64,000 nt of DNA from an uncultured Gammaproteobacteria bacterium (GCA_964553245.1 CAZKJM010000001.1:447555-511554); one strand, 5' to 3'. Shown: positions 1,953 through 29,770, counted from the stretch's first letter. Made by a program: numbers and translations. The notes: generated by a model from the letters alone, not told the origin.

Positions 1953-3877
1953 AGATTAGTTGGCGTGGTTGGGTTTCCTGTCTGTATTGGTTGTTGATCA
2001 GGAGTTATTTCCGGATTTAATTGTTGGGGAGTTTTGGCAAGCGGTGCTTCATCCGTTGGTTTTTCGCTTGATTCCGTTTCTGCCTGTTTTTGCATTTTTT
2101 CAAGCTCTTGAGGATTAGATGTAATTAGCGTGTGCTCAAAAGGAGCAGCAATTACTTTTATAGCAACGTGACTTTGTCCTGCAAAAAATAATCCTTCACC
2201 GATGTCTGCGGAAAGCAACAACTCCTTTTCTCCTTGAGAAAGATAAAATATTTGAGCAATATGGTCAATTTCGGTAGTGCTTTGCTTTAAAAGCACTTGA
2301 ATTGATGAATTGGATAAAACAGCTTTCCCGTAGTCTGTTGATAAAAAGTCCTGAACATCCTGCGTTGCTGTGGTAAGCGCAAGATAATATTTTCTTGATC
2401 TTTTGGCTATTCCATAAACAAACGAAGCTGAATCCTGATATTTCATTATGTACCAAGCTTCATCTAAGATAAGCAATCTCTTTTTAAGATTCTTTTTAAC
2501 TTTTGTCCAAACAAAGTCCAAAATTATATGCATTGCAACCGGTCTTAATTCTTCCTCCAGGGTTTTAATATTAAATACGGTAAAAGGATTCTTTATGTCA
2601 AAGTTAGATTGTTGATTAAATATGCCATTTAAGCTTCCTTTAATGAATTTTTCAAGTCTTAAGGCAAGTTCTCTTGCGGCAGGATCTTCCATTCCCAAAA
2701 GTACTTTGTATAAGTCCTCCATAAGTGGAGGTTGTTTTTTTTGAGTTGAAGGATCTGCGGTAATTCCTTTTTGTCTGTATGTTTCTACCAGAGCTCTATC
2801 AAGTATCGCGTCGTGGGCAGGATCAAGATTGCCCATAATTATTCTTAGCAAGCCGTGAAGAGATAATATTTTTAAGCCGAGTTCGTTTTCCCCTTCTTCG
2901 TAAAGACCAGAAAGATCAAAAGGATTAATTTTTACCGGCTCAGACGGAGTAAAAGAAACATGCTCCCCTCCTAATGTTTTTGTCAGCGCTTCGTATTCTC
3001 CTTCCGGATCAATAATTATTACTTCTGTGCCAAACATAAATTGTCGCATCGCTTCAAGCTTAATAAGATATGATTTTCCGGAACCTGATTTACCAAAAAC
3101 TACTTCATTTGCATTTTCCAGTGTGTATCGATCAAAAATAACTAGTGAACCGTTTTGTTCGTTGATGCCATACATTACTCCGCGATCCTGCGTTAAAGTA
3201 GCAGAGGTAAACGGAAAGGTAGAAGCAAGAGAAGTTGTGTCCATGTTTCTGGTTATGAATAATCTGTCTTGACCAATTGGAATTGTTGACTTAAACCCGT
3301 CTTCCATCTGAAGGGTAGCGGTTTTAGTAATCATCATAATGGAATTAAGTATTGAGTTTAGTCTTTTTGATGCTTCGCTAAGATCATCAAGATTATCCGA
3401 AGATAAAGTTATATACAAACTGAACTGGAAAAATCTTTCAACTCCTTTTGCAAGTTGCTCTTGTATTTCCAGTGCGTCATCAAGTGCTGCTCTTACTTTT
3501 GGATCAACAACTTTTCCCTCCTCGATTTCGGAGGAAATAGTCGCTTCCATTTCGGCAATTTTTCTTCTTAAATCTGCCAGAACATCGGAGGCAGAGGTTG
3601 GGTAAATAAACATTGATACATTCATTGAATGGTCAAAGTCAATTAAAGGCTGTAGCCAGTTTGGAGAAACATAACGTGGGTATCCTACTACAAAAAACGT
3701 ACGATAGTATAAATCTCCAACGCGGATATATTTAAAATCTACTTCAACCGATGGGGGAGCAATTACATCAACTAAAGAAACCATTCCTTTTTCAAGCTTT
3801 TTAATACCGGGACCTTTTGTGTTTTGCTGAACAGGGATTATTGGTTGTTGTTTTGTTTTCTTGCCAAATATTTTCAT
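1949..3877 (-). CDS. virB4: Type IV secretion ATPase, VirB4/TrbE/TraC family
   Basis: Walker A (VVFGKSGSGKSYLIKL) and the family-typical Walker B (LLILDEAWYIMK) are present. Length is 642 aa. Pilin and VirB6-like genes lie upstream in the same orientation. Confidence 0.85.
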   Translation of the reverse strand: MKIFGKKTKQQPIIPVQQNTKGPGIKKLEKGMVSLVDVIAPPSVEVDFKYIRVGDLYYRTFFVVGYPRYVSPNWLQPLIDFDHSMNVSMFIYPTSASDVLADLRRKIAEMEATISSEIEEGKVVDPKVRAALDDALEIQEQLAKGVERFFQFSLYITLSSDNLDDLSEASKRLNSILNSIMMITKTATLQMEDGFKSTIPIGQDRLFITRNMDTTSLASTFPFTSATLTQDRGVMYGINEQNGSLVIFDRYTLENANEVVFGKSGSGKSYLIKLEAMRQFMFGTEVIIIDPEGEYEALTKTLGGEHVSFTPSEPVKINPFDLSGLYEEGENELGLKILSLHGLLRIIMGNLDPAHDAILDRALVETYRQKGITADPSTQKKQPPLMEDLYKVLLGMEDPAARELALRLEKFIKGSLNGIFNQQSNFDIKNPFTVFNIKTLEEELRPVAMHIILDFVWTKVKKNLKKRLLILDEAWYIMKYQDSASFVYGIAKRSRKYYLALTTATQDVQDFLSTDYGKAVLSNSSIQVLLKQSTTEIDHIAQIFYLSQGEKELLLSADIGEGLFFAGQSHVAIKVIAAPFEHTLITSNPQELEKMQKQAETESSEKPTDEAPLAKTPQQLNPEITPDQQPIQTGNPTTPTNL

Positions 3878-4542
3878 TTTTCTTCCTTTCTTACAATAGC
3901 TGTTTTTATATTTTCGGTTATCTGGTTTGTTTCGATATGGGCATCGTTATAAAGCTCGTAATAAAGTTTAACCAATTCCTCTTTTTCTAGCGTTTTTGCT
4001 CCAAGGCTAAGCCTTGCGAGTTGAGCGTGAATCGTATCAAGCTTTGTATGCAAAGATGCTTTTGCCTCTTCGATAAAAGAGTTTTTCCCCGACTGTTTTT
4101 TTACCGTTGCATTTGCAGCTACGGTTGCAGCTCCTTTTTCAAGATACGAATAGGGTATGCAGATATAAAAATTTTTGTCCAGCACGATATTTACTTTAAC
4201 CAATTCCTGCACAAAATCTCTATACAATTTAATTTGACTTGCTAGCATTTCGTTTTGGGTATTTTTGGCTTCGTTGTCTAATAGTTTTAAGTATGAGCTA
4301 ATATCTAGCTTTTTACTCCTAATAATAATTTCTATTGGAAAAGAAAGTGAGTTTAGAAGCGACGCGTAGGAATATATTTTTGTATTTTGCTCTTCAAGCG
4401 ATAAAAGCGCAAAATTTGTCGCTCTAACTTCAATAATAGAACAGGCACTATTTCCGGACAGAAGAACAATATCGTCAATAATATCAATAATTTCCGTAAA
4501 TTTTTGAGTTGTTGAGTGTATTTTTTGGGCAGAATCTTTCAT
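3874..4542 (-). CDS. Hypothetical soluble protein within the T4SS-like operon
   Basis: 222-aa ORF with a 4-nt overlap to virB4 and 3 nt from the upstream gene. No TM segment or recognisable motif. Confidence 0.5.
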   Translation of the reverse strand: MKDSAQKIHSTTQKFTEIIDIIDDIVLLSGNSACSIIEVRATNFALLSLEEQNTKIYSYASLLNSLSFPIEIIIRSKKLDISSYLKLLDNEAKNTQNEMLASQIKLYRDFVQELVKVNIVLDKNFYICIPYSYLEKGAATVAANATVKKQSGKNSFIEEAKASLHTKLDTIHAQLARLSLGAKTLEKEELVKLYYELYNDAHIETNQITENIKTAIVRKEEK

Positions 4543-4545
4543 ATA

Positions 4546-5811
4546 TTAATTACCGAATAAACTTTTTCTTAATTCTTCTCGCTCATCAATAGAAATTACT
4601 TCAATCGGCAAGATTATTTCTCCGGTTGCCTGAAATTCAACAGAATCGAATCTATGTTTTTTTTCCGGATCCTCAAAGTCAATGGTGTATATGCCGTTGG
4701 ACAAAGGAGTTGCTGATGCAAATTGCCCAAGCGGGTTAGTCTTAAAAGCCCGGACTGGGTTTCCTTCCTCGTCTTTTACCTCAACTAAAATATTCGGTAG
4801 AGGATTGTTTCTTGAGTCTTTTATAATACCTGTTAAAACATTTGGAAAATCAGTAGAAATAGGAAGTCCTACGCTTTTGCCCATTTCTTTTGGAATGCTT
4901 CTAACATGTTTAGTTTGTTTTATTTGCGGCTCAGGGATCGCCATGCTTGGGGTGTAAACTTTTTTATTTTGTACCTCAAGTTTTTTTTGAAGTTCCAATA
5001 ATTGATTTTCTAATTGTTGTTTTTGAAGCATAGTTTCATTTAAGATCTTTTCAAGTTCAGTTACTTTTTGGTGCGCTGCCTCATACTCTTTGGATCCTGT
5101 TTTCTCCGAAACTTCTTTTTGCTTTGCTTCCTCAAGTTGTTTTTGAAGAATTACAGCTTCTTTCTGAAGCTCTTCTTCTTTTTCTTCCGGTTCTTCTTTA
5201 GCTTCTTTGGTTGGCATATCAACCGGTTTTGGTGGTTCCACTACAGTTTTTAAATTGTTTTTGCCAAAAATTGCAGCAAATGGATTAGGAAGAGAAAAAG
5301 AGCTGTCATCTTGCAGGGTCTTGGCTTGAATTATTGGGTTAGAAATATTATTCAAGGTTTGCAAAAATGATATTTCTTTTTCGTCCAATTTATTTTTAGG
5401 AGTTTTTGGTAGCGAGGATAAAAATGACTTGAGCTTTTCTTCCGAAATTGCGGGTTGAACAGGAGAGTGAGCCATTATTGCGCCTTGTTTTAATGTCCCA
5501 AACTCGGGAAAATAAAGATCTGCTCCGTTTTTTTGATAAACAAATTGAGTTGGGTTAAAAAGTGCCTTTGAAAAATTGCCAATCATTACATCCAATGGTC
5601 TTCCCTCTATTGGCAAAAAAGCAAAGCTTGCTCCGATTCCGGCTACTACAAGCGCAATCGGAAGTTTTATCAAAAGCAAAAACGGCATAGCAGTAATAAT
5701 CCAACCTAAAATTACGCCTGTTGCAAGATATGCAAACTGTTTGACAGTCATATTGCCGATTAGTTTAAACTGAAAGCCTGTTATATCTTGAGGAATAGGG
5801 TGATTTTCCAT
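4546..5811 (-). CDS. T4SS-associated membrane protein. The N-terminal two-TM module (VirB3/PrgI-like?) is followed by a long coiled coil (EEKEEELQKEAVILQKQLEEAKQ…) and a C-terminal beta-sandwich-like domain.
   Basis: The N-terminus (TGFQFKLIGNMTVKQFAYLATGVILGWIITAMPF…) carries two predicted TM helices and is placed immediately upstream of virB4, as VirB3/PrgI is. Coiled-coil heptads are visible. The C-terminal region (PNILVEVKDEEGNPVRAFKTNPLGQFASATPLSNGIYTIDFE) resembles a carboxypeptidase-regulatory-like/Ig-like fold. Confidence 0.45.
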   Translation of the reverse strand: MENHPIPQDITGFQFKLIGNMTVKQFAYLATGVILGWIITAMPFLLLIKLPIALVVAGIGASFAFLPIEGRPLDVMIGNFSKALFNPTQFVYQKNGADLYFPEFGTLKQGAIMAHSPVQPAISEEKLKSFLSSLPKTPKNKLDEKEISFLQTLNNISNPIIQAKTLQDDSSFSLPNPFAAIFGKNNLKTVVEPPKPVDMPTKEAKEEPEEKEEELQKEAVILQKQLEEAKQKEVSEKTGSKEYEAAHQKVTELEKILNETMLQKQQLENQLLELQKKLEVQNKKVYTPSMAIPEPQIKQTKHVRSIPKEMGKSVGLPISTDFPNVLTGIIKDSRNNPLPNILVEVKDEEGNPVRAFKTNPLGQFASATPLSNGIYTIDFEDPEKKHRFDSVEFQATGEIILPIEVISIDEREELRKSLFGN

Positions 5812-5958: not shown

Positions 5959-6342
5959 TTAGGAACAGTTATTAAACCCAAAATAATTAATACATTCGGC
6001 TCCTGTTATATAGGCGATAATTTTTATTATTAAAAAAGATAAAAAGATTACCAATAAGCCGATAATTGCATAGGTTAAAGTTTTTTTTGCTTGATCAATT
6101 TTCTTTTGATCTCCGCCTGATGTTATAAAGCTGATTCCGGATAAAATAACAAAAATTAAGGCAACACTTCCCGATAAAATCAAGAGCCAATTAACAACTT
6201 GACCAAATACAACCGGAAGGCATTGAAGAGTTGCAACTCCGTCTACCATACAGTTTGACCAAGAAGCTCCGCCTGAAGTTCCTCCTGTGGAGCCGGTTCC
6301 AGGATCAGCTTTGGCGATAAGGTTAATAAAAGTTGCCAACAT
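5959..6342 (-). CDS. VirB2/TrbC-like T4SS pilin, paralogue 1
   Basis: 127 aa with two hydrophobic helices separated by the short polar loop TSGGDQKKIDQAKKTLTYA, shared with the neighbouring paralogues. It has Cys pairs near the N-terminal (SNCMVDGVATLQC) and C-terminal (AECINYFGFNNC) ends. Confidence 0.6.
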   Translation of the reverse strand: MLATFINLIAKADPGTGSTGGTSGGASWSNCMVDGVATLQCLPVVFGQVVNWLLILSGSVALIFVILSGISFITSGGDQKKIDQAKKTLTYAIIGLLVIFLSFLIIKIIAYITGAECINYFGFNNCS

Positions 6343-6386
6343 AAAGATAGATTAACAAAAGAAATATTAATTTACAATACGCTTTG

Positions 6387-6779
6387 TTATAAAGTCGGGA
6401 GTTCTAGATTATTGATGCTTGGGAGACCAAATACACTTAGTATAATGCTTATTATTAAGTAAGAAAGAAATACTACGATTAATCCAATAATAGCAGCTAC
6501 TATATGACTTCTTGCTGCTTCTACTTTTCCTTTATCTCCACCGGATGTGACCCATCTGATACCACCATATATTAAGTATCCAAGAGCAGCAACAATTGCT
6601 AATATAAATGCGGTATTAATTATTACACCGATTATTTTTCCAAAATCTCCAGCTTTAAGCTCGCATAGAGTTTGAGATATTCCTCCACCTTCGCAAAGAT
6701 TAATGGTCTCTGCAAACGCAAATGGAGCCAGTGTTAAATAGGTTGCTGCTGAGGTAATAATTCCTACAGTTTTTTTCAT
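6387..6779 (-). CDS. VirB2/TrbC-like T4SS pilin, paralogue 2
   Basis: Signal-peptide-like N-terminus (MKKTVGIITSAATYLTLAPFAFA), then TM1, loop (TSGGDKGKVEAARSH) and TM2. This is the classic VirB2 topology. Confidence 0.65.
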   Translation of the reverse strand: MKKTVGIITSAATYLTLAPFAFAETINLCEGGGISQTLCELKAGDFGKIIGVIINTAFILAIVAALGYLIYGGIRWVTSGGDKGKVEAARSHIVAAIIGLIVVFLSYLIISIILSVFGLPSINNLELPTL

Positions 6780-6824
6780 TTATAATTTAATGCTAGTATT
6801 AAATTCCTGTCTTGTCAAGTACTT

Positions 6825-7139
6825 TTATATAAAATTATTAATTCCGAATAGTCCTCCGATAATATTTACAATTAAATACGCTAATAAAACAACTACCAAC
6901 CCGGCTACGGCATAAAATAATTTTTTTCTTGCTGCTTGCAATTTTTGTTTATCGCCCTCTGATGTCATCCACTGAAATCCTCCGTAGATTAAAAAGCCTA
7001 AAGCCAGAATAATAGCAACTATATATAATATATTTACTCCGACACCGATAATTTTTTCAAGAGTACCTGCTCCACCGGTTGGAATTCCTTGTGGTCCTGT
7101 AATCTCTTGTCCTGCAATATTTAAAACGATCTCCTTCAT
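6825..7139 (-). CDS. VirB2/TrbC-like T4SS pilin, paralogue 3
   Basis: 104 aa with TM1, loop MTSEGDKQKLQAARKKL and TM2, the same motif as paralogues 1 and 2. Only 3 nt separate it from the upstream gene. Confidence 0.6.
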   Translation of the reverse strand: MKEIVLNIAGQEITGPQGIPTGGAGTLEKIIGVGVNILYIVAIILALGFLIYGGFQWMTSEGDKQKLQAARKKLFYAVAGLVVVLLAYLIVNIIGGLFGINNFI

Positions 7140-7142
7140 AAA

Positions 7143-8336
7143 TCAGCTGAATCCGGGTATTTTTAAAATATCAACACCAATTACCTGAAGTATAACAAGG
7201 GAAAAGATTATAAACAATAATCCAACAATAGCTGCTGTTAAAGACTCTTTTGCTCCCTGCATTTTTTCCGGGTTTCCTCTTGCCAAAATAATTTTGTAAC
7301 CAGATAGAATGATTAAGATTAATGCAATTCCCCCGGAAAGACTTAAAAGGACACCGAATAAAGATTTAATAAAAGACGCTGCATCTGTTCCTAATGTTAT
7401 TCCAAGCCCAGTATCTATGGATAAACATTTTCCGCCATCTCCCAACTCTGAACAATGCGCAGTAATCGGAGGAAGATTATCAAAAAGGTTATCAATAAAT
7501 ACTTTCCCCTCATTGCTTTCTTCTCCTAAAACATTTAGAACGATCCAGTCTTTATTATTGCCTTCAAAAACATATATAGTTTGATCTCCAATTGCCTTAT
7601 CTGGAACCTTAAGTTCTATTTTACATTCAGGCTCATCTAGACATTGCCTTAAATTGTCCGATCCGCCCTGGAACCTGTATTTATAAGTCCCGCTTTTGTT
7701 GTTATGGATTGTCAATGTAACTGTCTCTCCAGGATTTGCTTTTGAAGGATCGATTGACAACGTGAATGGAGCATTATGTTCTTGATCTAAATAAAAAGTT
7801 CTATAGGTCTCGACATGTTCTTTTTGTTTATTGGTTGCATAAAGTCTATAGACAGCGCCTCCTGTTCCAAAAATATCAAATTTTTCCACTTTAAATTGCG
7901 CTTTAATTTTCCAATTTTTCCCCCCATCATTACTAAAACAAGATTGTTGAACAAATGATGATCCTTGATGAGATAGGTCGCATGTTGAAGACTTTCTGTT
8001 AATTTTATACTCCAATTTCCATTCATGTTTTGAAGATTTAAAAACATTACTGGTTGATTCATTCTCTACCAAAATTAAGAGTTGATATTCTTCATCTGGT
8101 TTTGGCGCTGGTAATTGTCCCCCTCTTGAGTAATAAAGTGTTGTTTGAGTTTGAGCAGTGCTTACTTCTCCCCAAATAGCATCAGAAATATCTAGTTCAA
8201 CGTTTATAATGTCACCGTTTTTTACATTAGTTTTATCAATCGTTAGCGCAACTCCGCTTGCATGAACAGGGTTTTTAAAAAACAGGAAAAAAATTAAGAT
8301 TAAGATTGAAAATAGAATTCTTTTCAGGACAGGCAT
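7143..8336 (-). CDS. Pilin-fusion protein. After a signal peptide, a ~300-aa extracellular domain is fused to a C-terminal VirB2-like pilin module.
   Basis: The N-terminal signal is MPVLKRILFSILILIFFLFFKNPVHA. The Cys-containing extracellular region is beta-rich. The C-terminal 70 aa (…ILSGYKIILARGNPEKMQGAKESLTAAIVGLLFIIFSLVILQ…) repeat the TM-loop-TM motif of the three small pilins. Confidence 0.55.
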   Translation of the reverse strand: MPVLKRILFSILILIFFLFFKNPVHASGVALTIDKTNVKNGDIINVELDISDAIWGEVSTAQTQTTLYYSRGGQLPAPKPDEEYQLLILVENESTSNVFKSSKHEWKLEYKINRKSSTCDLSHQGSSFVQQSCFSNDGGKNWKIKAQFKVEKFDIFGTGGAVYRLYATNKQKEHVETYRTFYLDQEHNAPFTLSIDPSKANPGETVTLTIHNNKSGTYKYRFQGGSDNLRQCLDEPECKIELKVPDKAIGDQTIYVFEGNNKDWIVLNVLGEESNEGKVFIDNLFDNLPPITAHCSELGDGGKCLSIDTGLGITLGTDAASFIKSLFGVLLSLSGGIALILIILSGYKIILARGNPEKMQGAKESLTAAIVGLLFIIFSLVILQVIGVDILKIPGFS

Positions 8337-8374
8337 AATTAAATCGTAATTTAAAAAGTCTGTAAAAGCAAGTT

Positions 8375-9793
8375 TTAAGAAGTAAATTTAAGTCCCCGGC
8401 CTTTTACTGTTTGAAGATGCTTTGGATTATTTGGGTCATCTTCGATTTTTTTTCTGACCCGAAAAATAAGTTGATCCAAAGCCTGATCAGTTACTCCCGC
8501 TGTTGTTTGAGTATCCTTCCAAACAGCAGAAATTATTTCGTTTCTTTCTAAAATTTTTTCATGACTATCGATTAAAAATTTTAATAATCTAAATTCAAGA
8601 GTAGTGAGAGCATCGGATAAAACAATCTCACCTTTTTTAACTTGGTTTGTATTTTGATCGTAAATTATTTTATCCGAGGCGATTTTTATAAGCGCATTAT
8701 TTTTATCAAGAAACATTTCGAGTAGAGGAATTGAAATTTTCCCATTTTTTATTAAACCTATTTTTTCAAGTAGGTTAAGCTGTTCAAGATTAATCTTTTT
8801 AGCCATAGACTTTTGCTCAAACGGCGTTAAAAAACTCCAGATCTCAAAAAGACAGGCTTTAATTTGTTTTCTTTCTATTAAAAAATCAGCAATATTTTCT
8901 TTTGGAAAATCAGAGCTTGTTACAATTTCTGTAGCAAGTCTCGTAAGCTTACTGTGTCCTCCGGTAAGGCTAATTAATTTTTCAATTAATTCTTTTTTAA
9001 TTTTTTTACCCGAGACCTTTTCCAAATACGAAATTCTAAAATCCAGCCCGATTTTGTCTTTAATATTTAAATAGACAATTTTATCAGCAATAAATTCGTA
9101 AAACTGGTTTAATATTTCGGTAATTAAGGTTTCTTCAAGCGGTCTTGTCAGTGAAAATATTGAGGCAAAACGGTATTTAGCTTTATTTCTTAAAATTCTA
9201 AGATTTGCAAAAAACTCGCTTGAAATAACCGGGATGTACTCATCGAAACGATCAAATAAAAAAATAATCGACAATTTTTTTTCGATAGACAAGCAATCAA
9301 AAGCTTCTTTTAAACCCTGAAAAAGAACAAGTTCGTCGTTTAAGCTAAGATGTTCCTTAAAAATACGGTGAATTTCCCTATGTTCATTGATTAACTCTCT
9401 GTCTCTTAATGAATCGGCAAGAGACAAAAAAATATATTTATTTACGTCAAAAAGCGATCGGTTTTTAACCTCGGAAAAATTCATATAAACAAAATGAACA
9501 TTTTTTTGATTTTCTCCCAAATGCTTAACGCGGATTTTGTGATTATAGGCAAGCATCCTTAACAGATTTGATTTACCTGATCCAGGAAGACCAATTAATT
9601 GGCAGGAATTTCCCTCTTTTAGAAAATCTAAAATTTTCTGTATTTCTTCAAAACGGGAATCCTCAGGATAAAGGGATTCAAAATGAGTAAAACCATTATT
9701 GTTTGATTGTTTCATTGCAACACTATGGTAATTGTAAGTTTTTTGTAAGGAAAATATCAAGTTTAATAAGTTCTTAAGGATTAAAATCGCCAT
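8375..9793 (-). CDS. Transcriptional regulator with an N-terminal P-loop NTPase (AAA/STAND-like) fused to a C-terminal OmpR/PhoB-type winged helix
   Basis: Walker A is LIGLPGSGKSNLLRML. The C-terminus matches the trans_reg_C pattern (LTTLEFRLLKFLIDSHEKILERNEIISAVW…ALDQLIFRVRKKI…LQTVKGRGLKF). The annotated start at 9793 lies 4 bp from the divergent ORF start at 9797, so the internal Met at 9715 is a possible alternative start. Confidence 0.65.
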   Translation of the reverse strand: MAILILKNLLNLIFSLQKTYNYHSVAMKQSNNNGFTHFESLYPEDSRFEEIQKILDFLKEGNSCQLIGLPGSGKSNLLRMLAYNHKIRVKHLGENQKNVHFVYMNFSEVKNRSLFDVNKYIFLSLADSLRDRELINEHREIHRIFKEHLSLNDELVLFQGLKEAFDCLSIEKKLSIIFLFDRFDEYIPVISSEFFANLRILRNKAKYRFASIFSLTRPLEETLITEILNQFYEFIADKIVYLNIKDKIGLDFRISYLEKVSGKKIKKELIEKLISLTGGHSKLTRLATEIVTSSDFPKENIADFLIERKQIKACLFEIWSFLTPFEQKSMAKKINLEQLNLLEKIGLIKNGKISIPLLEMFLDKNNALIKIASDKIIYDQNTNQVKKGEIVLSDALTTLEFRLLKFLIDSHEKILERNEIISAVWKDTQTTAGVTDQALDQLIFRVRKKIEDDPNNPKHLQTVKGRGLKFTS

Positions 9794-9796
9794 AAT

Positions 9797-12499
9797 ATGA
9801 CAAAAGAATTTGAATTCCAGAAATTGACAAGCGAAGTTAATTTTTCTACACTCAAAGGTAGAAAGGTTATTTTTATGGAGAACTCAGAAACACCAAGGCC
9901 ACCTGAAGATAAGGGAATGGGTAAGAATGTGTTAGGCGGAGAAAATCCTGCTTCTTCAGAAGCTTCTGGAGTTAACGAAACAAGTGAACAAAGAGGAGAA
10001 GAGCTTCAAAGAAATCTTGCAAGGCTTGGTATAGGAAGCGAAGAGTTTGGAGATATTTCAGAAGAAGAGAGGTTGATGGCTCAAAGAGCACAACAAGAGT
10101 TTATAAGACAAGCAAGGGAGGGTCTTAGAGACAACATTTCCCCGCAGGAAAAACTAAAAAAAGAAGAAGAAAAAATCCTTAGCTTAGGATCAAGAGAAGA
10201 TCTTGATAAATTTTTAGTTTCAAAAGACAAGAATCTTTTGTTTTATCTTCTAGACGCAAAAAGATTAATAGAGAAAGGCGATTTTGCAATAGAAGACGAA
10301 AGAGCAAAGGAAAACTTTTTAAACGAATTAAATGAACTCATTGCGATGTCAAAAGGGGACAAATCAATAGTGGACGTCGATGATTATAAAAGAAGGGTTT
10401 CTGAAATTATTCATGGCAAAACTGATGCGGCTGGTAAAGAAAGCCTCGGCTTAATAGATTTATGTAAAAAACGCGAGCCCAGAGAAATGCACGGCGAAAT
10501 GCCTAAATGCCTTGAAGATCTTGCCGAATTAATCATGAGCTCGGAGGAAGATAAGTGGAGAAAAGACGGAGAAAGAGCGCTTATTAACGAAGAGGGAAGT
10601 GTAAATACGGAAAATTTATTAGCTTGGTTCAGGGACAGAATTATGTGGTTTCATGATTTTAATCCTGATTCGGAGATAAATTTGTTTAATCAAATCTCCG
10701 TGCCAACGCTGTACAGAACCTACTCATTTTCGGAAATGCTTGATAACAAAAGATATTTCTTAAAAAGAACAAAAAGGTTAGGAGAAGGAGAGTACGAACA
10801 TCATAGAAGCGAAGAATATGAAAAATTAAAAGACCATTTGCTTTACGAAGTTTGGTTGTTTAACACCTCGCATAATTATGACGTAAAATACCGCACTGTT
10901 ATGGGAATTGAATCTAAGGTTCCGGAGGTTTTAACAGAAATGTATTACACTAACGTTTTTACTAAGGATAGGAATAGACTTCTCAAGATTTTAAAGCTTC
11001 CTAAAATTGATCAGATAGAAGTAGGAAAGATTGTTAAGTCTAAAAATGGCGAGCAAGAAGGACAGGGAACAGTTGGAAGAGTCGTCAGAAGAGCTCTTCT
11101 TGCCTATTATTATCTTCCGGAGTTGGTTGCAGAAGATGATCAATTAGTAAATGGTGGGAATATGTTTGAAAAGTCACTCGGAGAAAATGGCTCGCTTGAA
11201 TTTTACGCTTCCCTTGTAAAACAGCTTGGTGGAGAAGTCCTAGACACAGGATCAATGGGTTTTAGAGACGCCAGAAATATTTTAAGAGAAAGAATAGCTG
11301 ATTTACTAGATAAAAAATATGGTCATAAATTTACCCAGCTAAATATTTTTGATGACGTAAATAAAGATAGAACGGTACTGCGTCTTATAAGAACTGCCTT
11401 AAGGGATGCGATTGCAAAGGTGGAAGGATTAGCAGATAAAAAAGGAAATCCGGACGAAAACGTTATCTATGGAGAGAACTGGGCAAATACAATGATTTAC
11501 TGGACAGGAATTTCTGCAAAAAACGATACTAATGCAATTGGTTTTGACGCGTGGACAAAAATAATGAGCGCAAAAGATTATAGAGTAAGACAAGCAGGAG
11601 CAAGAGGAATTTTTGGAGAAATGTACAATATTTATGGTTTAACAAGAATCGGATTAAATTTTTGGGAAGGAATTAAAGTAAGAAGAGAAGGAGACAGGGG
11701 TTTTAACTGCAATGTTTTGGAGGTTTTACAGGGTGGTCAAGGAAACGATATTAATCTTGATCGCGGAATAAGCGATTTTGATTTTCAGGATAATGCTCAA
11801 AGACAATTTGCGGCAAATCATATAAGAAATGCTTTTAGTTTTTTTGAATTTGTAATGAAAAAACACGGAATGAATTTTGACCAATTTTTATCTGTTGACG
11901 TATTCGGGAGAATAATTTTTGATCCAGGGAAAGCAGACGAAGTGTTTGATAAATTATGGAGCAAAGGACTTCGTTATACTTTTGATTTGCCGGATTTTTT
12001 TTGGGATCATGAGGTACGTGGTTGGTGGAGAGATAAAGATAAGGATGGTGAGGAGTGCGTATATTTTGGCTCAAAAAAACTAAGGGATTTAATGTTTAAC
12101 GAAGAACTAAATAATATGGGAATGTACGACAGAGAAAGATTTAAAGATCAAAAGAGTAAATTAGCAGCTCGCAATGTTTTTGCATACCTTATTGCTAAAG
12201 AATTATATGCGCATAGAGCATTTGATTCCAGATATAAAAGATACAGCGCAGAACAAATAATGGTAATAGAATCATATTTAAGAGGATACCCATTAGAAAT
12301 TGAAGAAACAGAAGGACACGAGGTTAAAATAAAAGATTACTTTTTCTCAAAAGAGGAATGGGAGCATGTTACAAAAATTTCTCATACACAATATAGTAAG
12401 ATGTTTATGGAAAATCTTGCGTTAACTGGAACCCAAGGAGCAATAGGCGGAGCCTTTTCAGGCATAAAACATTTTATTAAGGAACTAGTAAAATTCTAA
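9797..12499 (+). CDS. Hypothetical 900-aa soluble protein with no recognisable domain, embedded in the T4SS-like locus
   Basis: Long uninterrupted ORF with good coding character, no TM segments, an acidic/charged N-terminal ~250 aa and a Trp/Phe/Tyr-rich core. It is divergent from the regulator gene and convergent with the VirB6-like gene, overlapping it by 4 nt. The start may be a downstream Met (M26 or M41). Confidence 0.6.
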   Translation: MTKEFEFQKLTSEVNFSTLKGRKVIFMENSETPRPPEDKGMGKNVLGGENPASSEASGVNETSEQRGEELQRNLARLGIGSEEFGDISEEERLMAQRAQQEFIRQAREGLRDNISPQEKLKKEEEKILSLGSREDLDKFLVSKDKNLLFYLLDAKRLIEKGDFAIEDERAKENFLNELNELIAMSKGDKSIVDVDDYKRRVSEIIHGKTDAAGKESLGLIDLCKKREPREMHGEMPKCLEDLAELIMSSEEDKWRKDGERALINEEGSVNTENLLAWFRDRIMWFHDFNPDSEINLFNQISVPTLYRTYSFSEMLDNKRYFLKRTKRLGEGEYEHHRSEEYEKLKDHLLYEVWLFNTSHNYDVKYRTVMGIESKVPEVLTEMYYTNVFTKDRNRLLKILKLPKIDQIEVGKIVKSKNGEQEGQGTVGRVVRRALLAYYYLPELVAEDDQLVNGGNMFEKSLGENGSLEFYASLVKQLGGEVLDTGSMGFRDARNILRERIADLLDKKYGHKFTQLNIFDDVNKDRTVLRLIRTALRDAIAKVEGLADKKGNPDENVIYGENWANTMIYWTGISAKNDTNAIGFDAWTKIMSAKDYRVRQAGARGIFGEMYNIYGLTRIGLNFWEGIKVRREGDRGFNCNVLEVLQGGQGNDINLDRGISDFDFQDNAQRQFAANHIRNAFSFFEFVMKKHGMNFDQFLSVDVFGRIIFDPGKADEVFDKLWSKGLRYTFDLPDFFWDHEVRGWWRDKDKDGEECVYFGSKKLRDLMFNEELNNMGMYDRERFKDQKSKLAARNVFAYLIAKELYAHRAFDSRYKRYSAEQIMVIESYLRGYPLEIEETEGHEVKIKDYFFSKEEWEHVTKISHTQYSKMFMENLALTGTQGAIGGAFSGIKHFIKELVKF

Positions 12500-14196
12500 G
12501 ATTGTTTCCCCCAAGCCTTTTCTCCCCCAAGCCATTGTTTAGTGCCATCGGCCAATCGTTGTGCGATCTTAGAATTTTTATGGTTATCGGCATATTTTTG
12601 CGTAAGTCTAATAGGTAAGCTCCTAATAGGACCCGCTCCTCTAGTATAATCAGCAGGTCTTGTCAGTTGTTTCCAGCCGTAACCAGTTGGTTTTCCCAGC
12701 GTTGATGTTCCAACATGGAAGGCTTGACCGATTGGAGCCATCTCAAACTTTGGAGCCTTAAGCATTTTCTCTACCATAGTTGCAACATTCGGAGTTAATA
12801 AAATTATCCCCAGTCCTACAACTGCAGCTAATTGATCTGCATTTCCAACGTTACCTACCAACGGTGGGGTAAAAAAAGTATTTGCGCCGGTTGATTGAAT
12901 TGCATCTATAAAAACTTTTCCGAGCAAAAGCATGGCTACTACAGTAGGAAAAACAATTAACTTAGAGCCTATGCTTCTTAACCAGGAACCAAAACCGCGT
13001 TCGCTTCCCATAAACGGAATTATTCCTATAACAATAAATAAAGGGGACAGTACTATGTCTATGAGTATCCCAACATAAGTGAGCAAAAGCTTAAACCATA
13101 ACCTAAACATAGCAAAAGTTATAGCAACGGCAATAATTAAGAATGCAATTAGTTGACCAAGTCCTGCTAAAACCTTTTCTGCAAATCCAGCAGCAGTTAC
13201 AGCCCCTGCAATTCCACCGATAATACTACCGATAATTGGTATAGCAGATCCAGCAGCTACTCCTGCAGCAACAGACCCAGCCATCATAAGCATACCAAGT
13301 ATTCCTTGAAGTATTTTACCTGGACCAGTTTCGAGCATTGATTGTATAAATGTTCCTATGGCACCCGCAGCTTGCCATGACATACTAACGAAGTTTACAT
13401 TTTTATCGAAATAAATTGGAGCTTGATAATTTACTTGGTTTGCTATTTCAAGTTTAATTTGGGGATCAGCATTTGCAAACAAGTTTATTATTAAATATGT
13501 CGCAACCCACATTAAGTCTATTAGGAATCCGGCAATTGCAAACGAAAAAGTTACTAAAATGATTCCGATAATCATTTTAGGAATTTGATTTTGAATAGTC
13601 ATTACGGTACGCGGATCAATTTTTACACGTAACATTATTGCAAGTCCAACAAGAATAAAAACAAGCACAAAAACTATATAAATCATATTTCTAAAAGCAG
13701 CCCACGCGTTCATTAGTGGATTTAATTGTTGAAAACCGGTTGTTTGTGCAAGCGCTGGTTTTGCAATCCCAAAATTCTGAGCTAGATAATTTACATATTC
13801 AAAACTATGCGCAGGAATATTAAAAGTCATTGTAATCAAATTGTTTAAAACACCGATTACTCCTCCTCCGCCAATTTGTCCGGGTTCTGCAGCGGGTACG
13901 AATCCGATTTTTCCGGTTTTTGGATCTACGCCCAAGCATTGATGATTTTGACTGATTGGGTCATATCCGGTTAACTGACAAGCAACAGTTGCCATTAATT
14001 CTATAAACACATTTTGAGTATAGGTGTGCAGGTTTTGGGGAACATCGGGATTATTTACGGGAGCGGTGTAGCTATTCTGAGCAAAGGAAGATTTACTTAA
14101 GTTAAATAAGAAAATCAGTACAAGAAAAAAAACGGTTATTAACCGGGCAGCGAATCTCATTAATATTAGTTTGAAGTATTTTAATTGGTGTGTCAA
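12496..14196 (-). CDS. Polytopic membrane protein, VirB6/TrbL-like T4SS inner-membrane component
   Basis: A signal-like N-terminus (MRFAARLITVFFLVLIFLFNLSKSSFA, alternative start 14160) precedes a ~130-aa extracytoplasmic region. This is followed by at least six hydrophobic helices with Gly/Ala-rich stretches, as in TrbL/VirB6. Genomic context is the VirB4/pilin locus. Confidence 0.5.
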   Translation of the reverse strand: MTHQLKYFKLILMRFAARLITVFFLVLIFLFNLSKSSFAQNSYTAPVNNPDVPQNLHTYTQNVFIELMATVACQLTGYDPISQNHQCLGVDPKTGKIGFVPAAEPGQIGGGGVIGVLNNLITMTFNIPAHSFEYVNYLAQNFGIAKPALAQTTGFQQLNPLMNAWAAFRNMIYIVFVLVFILVGLAIMLRVKIDPRTVMTIQNQIPKMIIGIILVTFSFAIAGFLIDLMWVATYLIINLFANADPQIKLEIANQVNYQAPIYFDKNVNFVSMSWQAAGAIGTFIQSMLETGPGKILQGILGMLMMAGSVAAGVAAGSAIPIIGSIIGGIAGAVTAAGFAEKVLAGLGQLIAFLIIAVAITFAMFRLWFKLLLTYVGILIDIVLSPLFIVIGIIPFMGSERGFGSWLRSIGSKLIVFPTVVAMLLLGKVFIDAIQSTGANTFFTPPLVGNVGNADQLAAVVGLGIILLTPNVATMVEKMLKAPKFEMAPIGQAFHVGTSTLGKPTGYGWKQLTRPADYTRGAGPIRSLPIRLTQKYADNHKNSKIAQRLADGTKQWLGGEKAWGKQS

Positions 14197-14228: not shown

Positions 14229-14315
14229 GGAGGGATCGCATAGAGGCCTAGTGCGTTCGCTTGGAGAGCGGATGTCGTCGTGAGATGACCGGGAGTTCGA
14301 ATCTCCCTCCCTCCG
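14229..14315 (+). tRNA. tRNA-Ser(GGA), type II with long variable arm
   Basis: Acceptor GGAGGGA/TCCCTCC, 3-bp D-stem, anticodon stem TTCGC/GCGGA with loop TTGGAGA, an 18-nt variable arm and T-arm GGGAG-TTCGAAT-CTCCC. The track ORF at 14102-14374 is an artefact over it. Confidence 0.8.
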
Positions 14316-14390
14316 CCTTCACCCGCCGAAGCCAGAATGGCGAAGGCGGGCTTCGATCGGGTTTCAGCGGACACAGTCCGCCATAATGAG

Positions 14391-14819
14391 TTATGAGTTA
14401 TGAGTTATGAGTTGTTTTGCTTCCTCCCAAACCTTTTTATCTGATTTGTAAGTTAATTTTTTTTCCACTTTTTCCACAGAAAGCCATTCAACGCTTTCCA
14501 TTTCTTTATCTTTTAAGCTTAAATCCTCAGTTAAATATTCCATTAAAAAATAATAAACGGTTTTCTTGATTTTTTGTTTTTCAAAAACATACCAATACTC
14601 AACCGGATTTAATGATTTTAGAATTTTGGCGTTAATACCTGTTTCTTCCAAAACTTCTCTTATTGCTGTGTCTTCTTTTTTTTCTTTTTCAATCTTATCT
14701 CCGATTAATCCCTTTGGAAAAACCCAGCCGTGATGTTGTGAATGCTGGCACACTAGAATTAAAAGTTTATTTTTTTCTTTTTTAAAGACTATGCCACCGG
14801 CAGAAAATTCAAATTTCAT
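14391..14819 (-). CDS. NUDIX hydrolase
   Basis: Nudix box GX5EX7REVLEETGI present (…KGLIGDKIEKEKKEDTAIREVLEETGINAKI). Overlaps the upstream GIY-YIG gene by 4 nt (ATGA). Confidence 0.7.
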   Translation of the reverse strand: MKFEFSAGGIVFKKEKNKLLILVCQHSQHHGWVFPKGLIGDKIEKEKKEDTAIREVLEETGINAKILKSLNPVEYWYVFEKQKIKKTVYYFLMEYLTEDLSLKDKEMESVEWLSVEKVEKKLTYKSDKKVWEEAKQLITHNS

Positions 14820-15058
14820 AATGGAAATAAATGTTTTTTTAAGAAAGCCCTTCCAGAACCAGATTTAAGGTATTTCTCAAAATTAAAAGCGGTATATTTA
14901 TCTATGAACGCAAAATAAGAGATCAGTCTTATTGGACGTAGTAATTTAGTTGCAGGTACATGTCCTTTTTTATGCCTTTCTATTCTTTCTTCCAAATTGC
15001 TTGTACAACCCGTATATGGTTTGCCGTTTTTACATTTTAAAAAATATACAAAAAACAT
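14816..15058 (-). CDS. Small stand-alone GIY-YIG domain protein (~80 aa)
   Basis: The GIY-YIG-like motif is MFFVYFLKCKNGKPYTGCTSNLEERIERHKKG. The track ORF (14816-15259) is over-extended across two tRNA genes. The real start is probably the Met at 15058, with AAGGAG 9 nt upstream. Confidence 0.6.
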   Translation of the reverse strand: MFFVYFLKCKNGKPYTGCTSNLEERIERHKKGHVPATKLLRPIRLISYFAFIDKYTAFNFEKYLKSGSGRAFLKKHLFPL

Positions 15059-15122
15059 ACTAATTTCTCCTTCGCGAACTACTAAGCGGATGTTATCCGC
15101 CGTAGCTCGCTTCGGCGAGCGA

Positions 15123-15212
15123 TGGCGGAGGAGAGAGGATTCGAACCTCTGTGAGCCGTAAAGCCCGCTCGGTTTTCGAGACCGGCCAAATAAACCACTC
15201 TTGCACTCCTCC
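15123..15212 (-). tRNA. tRNA-Ser(CGA), type II
   Basis: Reverse complement gives acceptor GGAGGAG/CTCCTCC, 3-bp D-stem CAA/TTG, anticodon loop CTCGAAA (one C·A mismatch at the stem top), a long variable arm, T-arm AGAGG-TTCGAAT-CCTCT and an encoded CCA. Confidence 0.65.
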
Positions 15213-15217
15213 ATAAG

Positions 15218-15290
15218 CGCTCTTGGGGAGAATCGAACTCCCAGCCTAAGCGTCCGCAACGCTTCGCTCTATCCGTTGAGCTACAAGAGC
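15218..15290 (-). tRNA. tRNA-Arg(GCG)
   Basis: Reverse complement GCTCTTG-TA-GCTC-AACGGATA-GAGC-G-AAGCG-TTGCGGA-CGCTT-AGGCT-GGGAG-TTCGATT-CTCCC-CAAGAGC-G. Every stem pairs perfectly and the anticodon is GCG. Confidence 0.75.
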
Positions 15291-15297
15291 CCGTTAC

Positions 15298-15346
15298 CGC
15301 TTCGCTCTATCCGTTGACCCCGATTAAATCGGGGTTGAACTACAGG
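15298..15346 (-). repeat. Truncated 5' copy of tRNA-Arg (5' acceptor strand, D-arm and 5' anticodon stem) interrupted by a 17-nt hairpin, upstream of the intact tRNA-Arg
   Basis: The 19-nt stretch gcttcgctctatccgttga occurs at 15261-15279 and again at 15299-15317. The second copy is followed by ccccgattaaatcgggg flanked by a ttga duplication, then actacagg, which is the D-stem region. It ends exactly at the anticodon stem/loop boundary. Confidence 0.55.
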
Positions 15347-15361
15347 CACAGATTAGCAAGT

Positions 15362-15375
15362 AGTATATAGCAAAT
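15362..15375 (-). promoter_or_regulatory. Putative extended -10 promoter (TGCTATATACT on the - strand) for the tRNA-Arg / tRNA-Ser(CGA) transcript
   Basis: The 14-mer agtatatagcaaat also occurs at 16266-16279, upstream of the other minus-strand tRNA pair. It resembles the TGCTATACT element upstream of three other genes. Confidence 0.4.
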
Positions 15376-15424
15376 AATAAATAGCTACACTGTGATTTTA
15401 CTTTAAAGTTGAATTTGAAGCAAA

Positions 15425-15997
15425 TTAATGGGAATTTTCCAAGGGAAAATTTTTAGAAAGCCAGTCGCCTGATTTTTCCATAAAAGTCGGCTTTATATAT
15501 TCCCTAAACGGGAGATAAGGCAAAAGTACTCTTTTTATGTGTTCTCTGTCAATGTTTCTTAATGTTAAGGTTAATTCCCCGGGGATAAATGCTTTTGTTC
15601 GTATGTGCAATACGTCTACGCCGTTTATCTTTTTAAAATAAAAATCATATAATTCTTGCCATAGGAAAAAATGATCCTCAACTTTTATTCCCTCAGTGCT
15701 TATTCTATAATGGAAATCCTGGGGGGGAACACTTGATAGCGCAAAGCTTACAAAGACCAAAGACAAAATTACCAGCATTAGTAAATATTGAGAAAAAAGA
15801 AAAAGAATAATCTCTACAAAAAACATAATCAAAAGCGCAGTTAAATAATATTGTTTTGTTCTTTTTTTAAATGGTCTGCCGGGAGAACTCCATGATAAAA
15901 GAGTTTTTACTTCCGTGGGGGGATAATTAAAGCTTGAATAAGGATGTTGTTCTTTAATTTCATTTGATTTAGGATTTTCCTTTATTTGTTTTTCCAT
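15425..15997 (-). CDS. Hypothetical membrane protein (190 aa, two TM helices)
   Basis: ORF of good length between tRNA genes with central hydrophobic helices (LTALLIMFFVEIILFLFSQYLLMLVILSLVFVSFAL). Confidence 0.45.
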   Translation of the reverse strand: MEKQIKENPKSNEIKEQHPYSSFNYPPTEVKTLLSWSSPGRPFKKRTKQYYLTALLIMFFVEIILFLFSQYLLMLVILSLVFVSFALSSVPPQDFHYRISTEGIKVEDHFFLWQELYDFYFKKINGVDVLHIRTKAFIPGELTLTLRNIDREHIKRVLLPYLPFREYIKPTFMEKSGDWLSKNFPLENSH

Positions 15998-16062
15998 AGA
16001 GCAGTATATTTTTAATCTACCCTAATCAGAAGTATTAGTCAATAAATATTGATTTTCAATTT

Positions 16063-16152
16063 TGGCGGAGAGGGTGGGATTCGAACCCACGTTCACCAAT
16101 TGGCGAAAGCGGTTTTCAAGACCGCCGCACTAGGCCTCTATGCGACCTCTCC
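16063..16152 (-). tRNA. tRNA-Ser(TGA), type II
   Basis: Reverse complement gives GGAGAGG…, D-stem GCA/TGC, anticodon stem GCGGT/ACCGC with loop CTTGAAA, a long variable arm, T-arm and an encoded CCA. Confidence 0.8.
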
Positions 16153-16157
16153 TAGGG

Positions 16158-16247
16158 CGGAGGAGGTGAGATTCGAACTCACGCGAGCTTATTCAGCTCA
16201 GGGGGTTAGCAACCCCCCGCAATGGACCGTGCTATGCGACTCCTCCT
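16158..16247 (-). tRNA. tRNA-Ser(GCT), type II
   Basis: Reverse complement gives GGAGGAG-TC-GCA…, anticodon stem GGGGG/CCCCC with loop TTGCTAA, a long variable arm and T-arm GTGAG-TTCGAAT-CTCAC. The track ORF 16049-16267 is an artefact over the two tRNAs. Confidence 0.8.
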
Positions 16248-26858: not shown

Positions 26859-27488
26859 ATGTGGGAAATTATTCCTGGAATATTGGAAAAAGACTGGAAT
26901 TCAATTGAGGGAAAGATAGGGCTTATTAAGTCTTTTGCAAAGACAATACAAATAGATGTTATTGATGGAAAATTTGCGCCAAACGCTACTTTTTTAGACC
27001 CAAAACCATTTAAAAAATATTCTGGCGACATTTTTTTTGAAGTTCAACTAATGGTTGAAAACCCACTGGATTACATAGAAAATTTTGCAAACGCAGGTTT
27101 TAAAAGATTTATAGGCCAAATAGAAGAAATGCCGGATCAAAAAACCTTTATCGATTTTGCGAAAAAATTTGGAGAAGCAGGATTAGCAATTGATGCTCAA
27201 ACGTCATTGGATAACATAAAGGTGGATTTTAATTACCCTGACTGTTTTACATTAATGAGCGTTAAAGCTGGTTTTTCGGGGCAACTGTTTATTTCATCTG
27301 TCTTGGAAAAGACAAAAGCCTTAAGAGAAAAAACTTTAAAGCCAATAGAGATAGACGGTGGGATAAATAGAAGTACAATAAGAGGGGTTAAAGAATTTGG
27401 CGCAAACAGATGTGTGGTAAATAGTGCATTATTTAAAGCAAATAATTTAAAAAATGAATTTGAAAACCTTCGTGATTTATCATTTTAG
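26859..27488 (+). CDS. rpe: Ribulose-phosphate 3-epimerase-like protein
   Basis: IIPGIL…IDVIDGKFAPNATF…VQLMVENP resembles Rpe motifs (IDVMDGHFVPNLTF, HLMV). Confidence 0.65.
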   Translation: MWEIIPGILEKDWNSIEGKIGLIKSFAKTIQIDVIDGKFAPNATFLDPKPFKKYSGDIFFEVQLMVENPLDYIENFANAGFKRFIGQIEEMPDQKTFIDFAKKFGEAGLAIDAQTSLDNIKVDFNYPDCFTLMSVKAGFSGQLFISSVLEKTKALREKTLKPIEIDGGINRSTIRGVKEFGANRCVVNSALFKANNLKNEFENLRDLSF

Positions 27489-29674: not shown

Positions 29675-29770
29675 ATTTTAAAAGAGGCAGATTAATAAAA
29701 ATAAATTCAAAAGATAAAATCAGGTTTGCCAAATTATACTATAGGAGCCTTTTAAAGAAAAGGACTTCTT

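Follow-up and report, generated by a model that had tools for sequence, protein, structure and literature searches.

A fast-evolving large-protein family, apparently specific to Patescibacteria, encoded within their type IV secretion gene cluster

The 64 000 nucleotides considered here (the window; GCA_964553245.1, CAZKJM010000001.1:447555-511554), deposited as DNA of an uncultured Gammaproteobacteria bacterium, include a gene cluster for a type IV secretion system (T4SS), within which a plus-strand open reading frame (ORF) runs uninterrupted through 900 codons from ATG to stop (9797-12499, stop codon at 12497-12499). Its 900-aa product is here called BIG, with residue numbers counted from the first ATG. 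An earlier reading made from the bare DNA (the sequence-only reading) had singled out this ORF as encoding a domain-less orphan, divergent from a regulatory gene and convergent with, and overlapping, the gene for a membrane protein. The frame and this arrangement both hold good, the 3' ends of the convergent pair overlapping by 4 nt (12496-12499). BIG is certainly a real gene and not a chance ORF, because homologues exist, the ratio of nonsynonymous to synonymous divergence (dN/dS) is well below 1, and the protein core is modelled with confidence by AlphaFold2 (AF2). The gene has a GC content of about 35%, and its coding strand is strongly purine-skewed.

On the regulator side of BIG, the genes of the cluster all lie on the minus strand. 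Those for VirB4 ATPase (1949-3877), a TrsD/TraC-like protein (3874-4542) and a PrgI/VirB3-like protein (4546-5811) were each recognised by both Pfam and NCBIfam. They are followed by three small VirB2-like pilin genes (5959-7139: 5959-6342, 6387-6779 and 6825-7139), which match Pfam T4SS_pilin, and by a gene for a large protein of 397 aa (7143-8336) that carries a VirB2-like T4SS_pilin domain at residues 322-386. The divergent regulator (8375 to a probable start at 9716, in an ORF that stays open to 9793) combines a P-loop (STAND-like) nucleoside triphosphatase (NTPase) with a following winged helix of the OmpR/PhoB type (Pfam Trans_reg_C, 63.5 bits, plus weak NTPase matches); its NCBIfam matches are to the C-terminal domain of response regulators only. 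Just downstream of virB4, a minus-strand frame of at least 648 codons (1-1948) runs off the start of the window; it is homologous to a 1041-aa Peptidase_M15_4 protein of a related locus (L002), and so occupies the position of a VirB1-like cell-wall hydrolase.

On the other side of BIG is a polytopic membrane protein gene (12496-14160, minus strand; 554 aa from M13), with a signal or transmembrane (TM) helix and eight further TM helices, a predicted outer loop (residues 228-295, the hypervariable stretch reaching to ~360) and a basic cytoplasmic tail (477-566) that contains 16 Lys and Arg residues. This protein has more than 889 homologues. The sequence-only reading had called it VirB6-like: the window copy itself has no direct Pfam match, but a homologue, P0267 (41% identity over 96% coverage), matches TrbL/VirB6 (PF04610) with 32.0 bits against a cut-off of 25.9, and another, P0244, reaches 24.9 bits. 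The name that we keep for it thus rests on transitive homology, through the Pfam matches of its homologues. A profile of this VirB6-like protein found no match among PDB sequences.

The setting of BIG was compared across 15 independent loci (six contigs with first-round homologues, seven loci from species-representative genomes, and two distant members, P0140 and P0103). BIG adjoins and diverges from the same regulator in all 15, members as distant as E ~1e-73 to 1e-97 included, with one to three small genes intervening in two of them. The convergent VirB6-like gene follows in every locus that extends far enough, and beyond the regulator comes the pilin array and then, wherever the contig is long enough, the genes for PrgI, TrsD-like protein and VirB4, in the same order. 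The sequence-only reading had made its T4SS link depend on such co-occurrence in other genomes, and the link is upheld: co-location conserved in 15 of 15 loci, beside the regulator and pilin array on one side and the VirB6-like gene on the other, strongly supports BIG as an accessory member of the Patescibacteria T4SS gene cluster. We also draw attention to a small 23S_rRNA_IVP (PF05635) gene found between regulator and BIG in two unrelated loci (L001, 9457-9864; L019, 7302-7682).

The T4SSs of Patescibacteria have been described as chromosomal, relaxase-less, pilus-bearing and MPF-FATA-like (PMC12102498). In the two main studies (Wang et al., 2023; Quinonero-Coronel et al., 2025), the features shared with the present locus are a VirB4 of the Patescibacteria clade, a TrsD-like protein, PrgI, an array of VirB2-like pilins, a divergent VirB6, and a cluster that lacks both relaxase and coupling protein. 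As far as the texts were searched, the component lists given there, and in a 2025 review, contain no BIG-like protein, and those of the two studies contain no such regulator. Every locus here has a VirB6-like gene, whereas the two studies, the 2025 survey among them (PMC12102498), give VirB6 as scarce or undetectable in Microgenomatia.

How widespread is BIG? A word-indexed search recovered ten homologues (28-39% identity), and the closest non-self match among 5.8 billion proteins is 39% identical. Repeating the word-indexed search with a profile of 150 family sequences returned only nine proteins, all already known. An exhaustive profile search, on the other hand, found at least 372 cluster representatives (clusters of 50% identity), 266 of the 372 at E ≤ 1e-30, so that BIG can no longer be called an orphan. 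Contigs carrying homologues are labelled Candidatus Levybacteria, Levyibacteriota or 'Patescibacteria group', and so fall within the Microgenomates, a group of the candidate phyla radiation; judged by these matches, BIG is a lineage-specific family of Patescibacteria (Levybacteria/Microgenomates). Three contigs from metagenome-assembled genomes (those of L002, L010 and L011; records CAZFYA010000006.1 and CAYWVK010000016.1) are labelled 'uncultured Gammaproteobacteria', yet carry a complete T4SS locus of the Levybacteria type, with a VirB4 that is 83-85% identical to the window copy, and their label is almost certainly wrong.

As the sequence-only reading had supposed, BIG is a large soluble protein with an acidic N-terminal region and an aromatic-rich core. 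It has no stretch fit for a signal peptide or TM helix (the highest 19-residue Kyte-Doolittle mean is 0.71), and the lack of an export signal argues that it is made in the cytoplasm. Residues 27-115 (9875-10141) form an acidic region (isoelectric point 4.5, grand average of hydropathy -1.17) that is predicted to be disordered, the AF2 confidence score (pLDDT) being below 50 at residues 1-88 and 99-113; across the family this N-terminal region ranges in length from almost nothing to about 700 extra residues. A helical and weakly conserved domain follows (residues 116-234, 10142-10498; AF2 helices with pLDDT 55-83), which in close pairs is the most variable part of the protein (18-50% identity). 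The conserved core, of mixed alpha/beta type (residues 235-870, 10499-12406), was delimited from alignments of 11 and of 150 members, with pLDDT mostly 80-94, and comprises about 650 residues shared by the family; Phe, Trp and Tyr together make up 13% of residues 235-900. Thirteen core residues are kept in at least 90% of the 150 members (W277, R279, Y365, G427, Y437, N516, G571, D577, D584, R596, G607, R726 and Y727), and the conserved blocks include ExWLFxxxxNxDxxYR, NxFTK and WTGxAARNDTxAxGFDAWxKxxxxxxYRxRQ. From the pattern of invariant Asp, Asn, Arg and His together with aromatic residues, a site of binding or catalysis may be suspected. The window contains no paralogue of BIG, and the protein has no internal repeats.

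The absence of any recognisable motif, which the sequence-only reading had reported by eye, extends to every sequence and fold library searched. BIG gave no family match in Pfam, NCBIfam, PHROGs or PADLOC, and none of its homologues is named or has a consistent Pfam domain; 52 further family members (six long and 46 divergent) scanned against Pfam in search of fusions gave sporadic short matches only, such as SHOCT in two of the 46. Against PDB sequences, phmmer with BIG found nothing, and the only matches of the 150-sequence profile were low-complexity stretches, picked up by the disordered N-terminus. The AF2 model had no significant structural match to PDB or viral folds, although the conclusion that BIG has no known fold is provisional, because the model rests on 11 sequences. 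In these remote-homology and fold searches, then, BIG matched no housekeeping or other family.

These results bear on one suggestion of the sequence-only reading, that BIG is a relaxase-independent DNA-processing factor. In such a case it would replace the relaxase, or escort DNA in the manner of VirE2 or a primase, in some conjugation-like function. The locus does derive from monoderm conjugation systems and has no recognisable relaxase (PMC12102498), and BIG is a large cytoplasmic protein whose gene sits at the locus edge. Against this, HUH/3H, Rep_trans, P-loop, primase and nuclease motifs are all absent from BIG, which has no Pfam or NCBIfam match (nor a consistent one in the 52 members scanned against Pfam) and shows no fold match to a solved relaxase or DNA enzyme. 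None of the hallmarks of a conjugative relaxase (HUH/3H with catalytic Tyr, Rep_trans, PD-(D/E)XK, or the tyrosine-recombinase fold) was found, and with no P-loop family or fold match BIG does not class with the coupling proteins VirD4, TraG and TcpA or with the VirB4 and VirB11 ATPases. A motif scan for HExxH, GxSxG, Walker A (GxxxxGK[ST]), CxxC and HxH was likewise negative, and four DxD triplets all fall outside conserved columns. The family was not found when the BIG core was compared by tblastn with the 72 556 plasmids of PLSDB and the 50 697 phages of INPHARED, and the locus lies on the chromosome, where the flanks examined give no hint of an excisable element. A role in DNA processing therefore seems very improbable.

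The region between BIG and its regulator has an elaborate and conserved organization. The sequence-only reading had placed the first ATG of BIG only 4 bp from the ATG of the divergent gene, a spacing that turns out to be an artefact of taking the longest regulator ORF. A promoter for the regulator (TTGATA-18 nt-TACAAT; 9731-9760, minus strand), both hexamers of which are kept in all loci, lies inside that longer ORF, so the regulator probably starts at ATG 9716. Its length is then 446 aa (437-473 aa in homologues), and the start at 9716 leaves an intergenic region of 80 bp. The start of BIG is indeed ambiguous, as that reading had suspected, and comparison of the loci supports both 9797 and 9875. 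Inside the BIG ORF lies a promoter-like sequence, P2 (9824-9852, plus strand), with a -35 box TTGACA (9824-9829), a spacer of 17 nt and a -10 box TACACT (9847-9852), and beyond it an SD-like (Shine-Dalgarno-like) sequence, GAAAGG (9861-9866), precedes a second in-frame ATG (M27), from which a short form of 874 aa (9875-12499) would be made. The near-invariant Leu-Thr pair encoded by the -35 box (residues 10-11) is written TTG ACA in all 15 loci, even though 13% of Leu codons are TTG and 35% of Thr codons are ACA. TAnnCT follows 17-18 nt after TTGACA, its T, A and final T invariant while the encoded residues change; in 14 loci an ATG stands behind a purine-rich SD-like run (of the GGAG/GAAGG type), 9-22 nt past this conserved -10 box. 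On its sequence, P2 is thus a canonical sigma-70-type promoter with a ribosome-binding site, inside the BIG ORF.

It might be supposed that BIG starts only at ATG2 and that the first 26 codons are merely a translated promoter. We reject this on the evidence of the frame between ATG1 and ATG2, which contains no stop in any of the 15 loci (the other two frames have one to five stops each), and of TTGACA, which is always in phase with the BIG ORF, its distance from ATG1 varying from 21 to 72 nt in multiples of three. ATG1 has a putative promoter of its own, P1, represented in the window by a -10-like box, TAAAAT (9782-9787, plus strand), 9 nt upstream of the ATG. In at least 13 loci TAAAAT, TAAACT or TATACT stands exactly 21 nt after the -35 box of the regulator promoter (TATCAA) and 7-10 nt before ATG1; P1 has no -35 consensus. 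The order regulator -10 and -35, P1 box, ATG1, in-frame P2, SD, ATG2 (9717-9877 in the window) is rigid in at least 13 loci. Two nested starts, at 9797 and 9875, are therefore likely; P1 would give the 900-aa form and may be activator-dependent and its transcript possibly leaderless, and P2 would provide the 874-aa form constitutively. Whatever the purpose, this is a clear example of a canonical promoter maintained within a coding sequence.

Seven bases past ATG2, at 9882, DNA similarity to the closest relative of the window locus (contig L006) comes to an end. Up to that point the two are 81-87% identical, and from there they cannot be aligned until 13484, a point within the VirB6-like gene; alignment fails again over 7468-8338, which covers the N-terminal part of the large pilin. 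At the amino-acid level, VirB4 (95%), TrsD-like protein (97%), PrgI (90%), a small pilin (93%), the regulator (86%) and a NUDIX protein (83%) are all much alike in the two loci, set against 40% identity for BIG, 49% for the VirB6-like protein and 44% for the large pilin. The dN value for BIG is 0.58, compared with 0.028 for VirB4, a 20-fold excess, and Nei-Gojobori dN/dS is 0.29 compared with 0.04. BIG evolves under constraint (dN/dS 0.2-0.3). In a second close pair (L002/L010), VirB4 is 91% identical, the regulator 92% and BIG 59%, and over all pairs BIG is 32-59% identical regardless of VirB4 identity. BIG is the fastest-evolving gene of the locus, changing some ten times faster than the core of the machine.

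Could this divergence reflect the exchange of alleles? At fourfold-degenerate codons for identical residues, third-position differences amount to 0.56 ± 0.06 in BIG and ~0.41 in the flanking genes. Since silent divergence is only about 1.4-fold higher, as against 20-fold for dN, most of the excess is due to faster amino-acid change, and the divergence of BIG cannot come solely from the swapping-in of an old allele. BIG alleles may be somewhat older than their flanks, which points to some recombination. In the L002/L010 pair, silent divergence of the regulator gene is 0.17, compared with ~0.44 for its neighbours, and the low value hints at a recent recombination event there.

With such figures in view, one might regard BIG as unconnected with the T4SS, and as a defence, anti-defence or other conflict gene lodged in an adjoining variable hotspot. 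Its fast evolution and slightly older silent divergence are those of genes in recombination hotspots, tRNA genes are nearby, and restriction-modification or GIY-YIG genes occur in some loci. However, a hotspot would carry different cargo in each genome and not one family every time, and the constant position and orientation of BIG in 15 of 15 loci across deep divergence, with a fixed promoter architecture and no PADLOC match, make this explanation quite unlikely.

Variation within the locus is unevenly spread. In L002/L010 the N-terminal third of BIG is the most variable part (18-50% identity), and core segments reach 75-92%. The TM bundle of the VirB6-like protein is 95-100% identical in the same pair, its predicted outer loop (about residues 240-360) 35-52% and the last 60 residues of its tail 15-28%; among the matches listed for this protein, 119 non-self homologues are 40-59% identical, and those aligned over at least 77% reach no more than 49%. 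Compared with its closest relative, the large pilin is 82-100% identical in its C-terminal pilin domain and 10-30% identical over residues 40-300. Two parts of the VirB6-like protein, its outer loop and its cytoplasmic tail, thus vary together with BIG, as does the outer domain of the large pilin. The hypervariable N-terminal ~300 residues of the large pilin (7143-8336) make it, in its own right, a candidate pilus-tip or adhesin subunit.

That BIG varies in concert with the pilin outer domain and the VirB6 outer loop would suit a protein that is exported by the T4SS and does not enter the host but remains attached to the machine outside the cell, serving in structure or adhesion as a stalk, cap or tip factor in the manner of VirB5 or CagL. 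Constant presence with the machine would be expected of such a part, and for Patescibacteria T4SSs no VirB5 or adhesin homologue is known (PMC12102498). Known pilus-tip proteins and the pilins of this very locus use Sec signals, however, and BIG has no signal peptide; known tip proteins do not resemble a folded 100-kDa protein of which one third is acidic and disordered, and there is no fold similarity to VirB5, CagL or adhesins. We consider a role at the tip unlikely.

The C-terminus of BIG offers a different kind of evidence. Residues 871-900 (12407-12496) comprise a linker rich in Gly, Ala, Ser and Thr and then a basic amphipathic helix (GIKHFIKELVKF), and this character is retained across 145 members in spite of sequence turnover. 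In the family, positions -32 to -15 contain 40% Gly, Ala, Ser or Thr, compared with 23% in the cores, with Gly reaching 35% at single positions; the last ~14 residues have a net positive charge in 81% of members and a net negative one in 7%; the helical hydrophobic moment is 0.56 against 0.42 in controls, and exceeds the member's own control in 87% of cases. Lys is the commonest final residue. Substrates of the VirB/D4 type bear positively charged C-terminal signals, and a tail of this kind would be compatible with such a translocation signal. Membrane-targeting sequences of the MinD/FtsA type place a short, basic amphipathic helix at the very C-terminus, behind a flexible linker, a layout that the BIG tail shows in its composition; the likeness to MinD and FtsA goes no further, BIG having neither an ATPase nor an actin-like domain. 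Inspection of the tail for a T4SS signal, as proposed in the sequence-only reading, therefore brought out a widespread positive charge, but in features that suit a membrane anchor too.

If the tail does serve as an anchor, BIG might be a cytoplasmic accessory subunit of the T4SS, held peripherally at the membrane by its C-terminal helix as a partner of the VirB6-like tail: its acidic N-terminal region would perhaps bind that basic tail, and BIG would act as a docking platform, a gate or a regulator. It would then be the functional counterpart, encoded by a gene of its own, of the large hydrophilic domains that 'extended' VirB6 proteins carry. Extended VirB6 domains (the C-terminal part of F-plasmid TraG, Rickettsiales RvhB6, and SEML1_0011/0013 of Southlakia epibionticum) are large soluble modules, helical for the most part and functionally linked to the VirB6 channel, and the hydrophilic module of F TraG is polymorphic and determines partner specificity. 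BIG, lying tail-to-tail with a short VirB6-like gene and co-varying with it, can be likened to these by description only, and differs from them as a separate polypeptide with promoters of its own. The VirB6-like proteins of S. epibionticum are given as ~1000-1090 aa with large helical soluble domains, compared with 554 aa here (PMC10633639 Table S2; PMC12857230). In favour of a tethered subunit are also the classic membrane-targeting layout of Gly-rich linker and basic amphipathic helix, the constant presence of BIG as a single-copy gene strictly adjoining the VirB6-like gene with overlapping 3' ends, and the hypervariability that the VirB6-like cytoplasmic tail shares with it. Set against these are the rates of change: the cytoplasmic machine parts VirB4 and TrsD-like protein are the slowest genes and BIG the fastest, and there is no known driver of a dN/dS of 0.3-0.5 over 900 codons in a purely internal adaptor. 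We regard this, the main alternative, as possible, if doubtful.

Some further features of the window deserve mention. A coupling protein of the VirD4 type (789 aa; 43058-45427, plus strand) is indicated by matches to Pfam TraG-D_C (24.2 bits, cut-off 22) and TrwB_AAD_bind (22.0 bits, cut-off 20.5); its gene lies ~30 kb away from the T4SS genes, a separation of a kind reported for many Patescibacteria, and the protein is a possible substrate receptor for BIG. A tRNA-Ser(GGA) gene (14229-14317) adjoins the VirB6-like gene and is 99% identical to L006 14892-14981, in inverted orientation. Four more tRNA genes (Ser, Arg, Ser, Ser) occupy 15123-16246, and a listed ORF with a GIY-YIG domain (14816-15259) covers two of these, so that its start must be over-extended. 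Two class-A penicillin-binding proteins, each with transglycosylase and transpeptidase, are encoded in tandem at 27485-31945 (minus strand) and a SpoIID-like protein at 21812-23509, together a notable commitment to cell-wall enzymes in a genome that is reduced.

What, then, does a Patescibacteria T4SS move? The system is essential for epibiotic growth in the saccharibacterium S. epibionticum (PMC10633639; PMC12857230), and it has been proposed to export proteins, no substrate being known (PMC10633639; PMC12102498; PMC12857230). The reading that we favour, and put forward tentatively, is that BIG is a candidate cargo, a host-interaction protein that would be translocated by the T4SS. It is the most economical reading because BIG is made in the cytoplasm, is hypervariable, and is always present in a secretion locus whose cargo is unaccounted for. 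BIG would dock at the cytoplasmic face of the T4SS through its Gly-rich linker and basic amphipathic tail, and would travel by way of the VirB4/VirB6 channel and the pilus onto or into the host bacterium, where the conserved core would act on a target of the host. The diversification of BIG would be driven by conflict with the host's recognition or defence, as would that of those regions of the VirB6-like protein and the large pilin that face outwards; expression would be from the two nested promoter/start pairs beside the STAND/OmpR-type regulator. The possibility of a secreted substrate or effector, which the sequence-only reading had raised, is thus favoured indirectly by fast evolution and by the family-wide basic tail; translocation, docking, the host target and the use of two starts are what we infer.

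Several observations weigh against this reading. The membrane-targeting layout fits the tail equally well, and the hypervariability of the VirB6-like cytoplasmic tail would suit co-evolving cytoplasmic partners as much as host pressure. Effectors are usually gained and lost, whereas BIG, encoded by a single, strictly syntenic and ever-present gene and keeping 13 residues near-invariant, has more the character of a machine component. No chaperone gene adjoins BIG, and the AF2 model, with a pLDDT of 72.5, was built from only 11 sequences. The coupling protein is non-essential in S. epibionticum and is encoded far from the locus (PMC12102498).

Among known substrates, the closest parallel is perhaps CagA of the Helicobacter pylori cag T4SS, as a functional analogue only. 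It too is large (~120 kDa), limited to one lineage, encoded at the edge of a T4SS locus and devoid of a Sec signal; like BIG, it combines a structured core with a long disordered region and is markedly diversified, and its Lys-rich C-terminal tail is needed for translocation. There is no sequence or fold similarity between the two (the CagA fragment 4irv was only a non-significant Foldseek match, E ~1); the disordered part is C-terminal in CagA and N-terminal in BIG; CagA needs the chaperone CagF, for which BIG has no neighbouring counterpart; and the target of CagA is a eukaryotic cell, whereas that of BIG would be bacterial. VirE2 and VirF of Agrobacterium tumefaciens and the Beps of Bartonella are cytoplasmic substrates recognised by way of an unstructured C-terminus of net positive charge; the genome carrying BIG encodes a VirD4-like coupling protein. 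The BIG tail differs from theirs in being Lys-rich and amphipathic-helical, without the Arg-x motif of VirB/D4 substrates, and BIG has no BID or other known delivery domain. In function, BIG may most resemble either dedicated effectors like CagA or detached domains of extended VirB6 proteins, and it is a member of no family tested. We see it as a new hypervariable family, accessory or cargo, without a fold match, in a T4SS of known kind; the case for its function is circumstantial.

To our knowledge, no secretion machine other than the T4SS has been shown to be essential for a cultivated Patescibacterium to live as an epibiont. Published accounts note the missing relaxase and coupling protein and only speculate on the export or uptake of proteins. 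In BIG, much of the Microgenomates has a concrete candidate, either for the cargo or for a specificity subunit so far missing, and the loci described here recover a VirB6 homologue that profile searches had largely overlooked in Microgenomatia. The variable module formed by BIG, the VirB6 loop and tail and the outer domain of the large pilin could explain host specificity. In its fullest and more doubtful form, the favoured reading would make BIG an effector of new fold, injected into the host or placed on it, that is the long-sought cargo and sets host range together with the VirB6 loop and the pilin domain, being produced as two isoforms under a contact-sensing regulator of the STAND/OmpR type. 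Whichever view of BIG is taken, the question of what this essential T4SS moves is turned by it into specific experiments.

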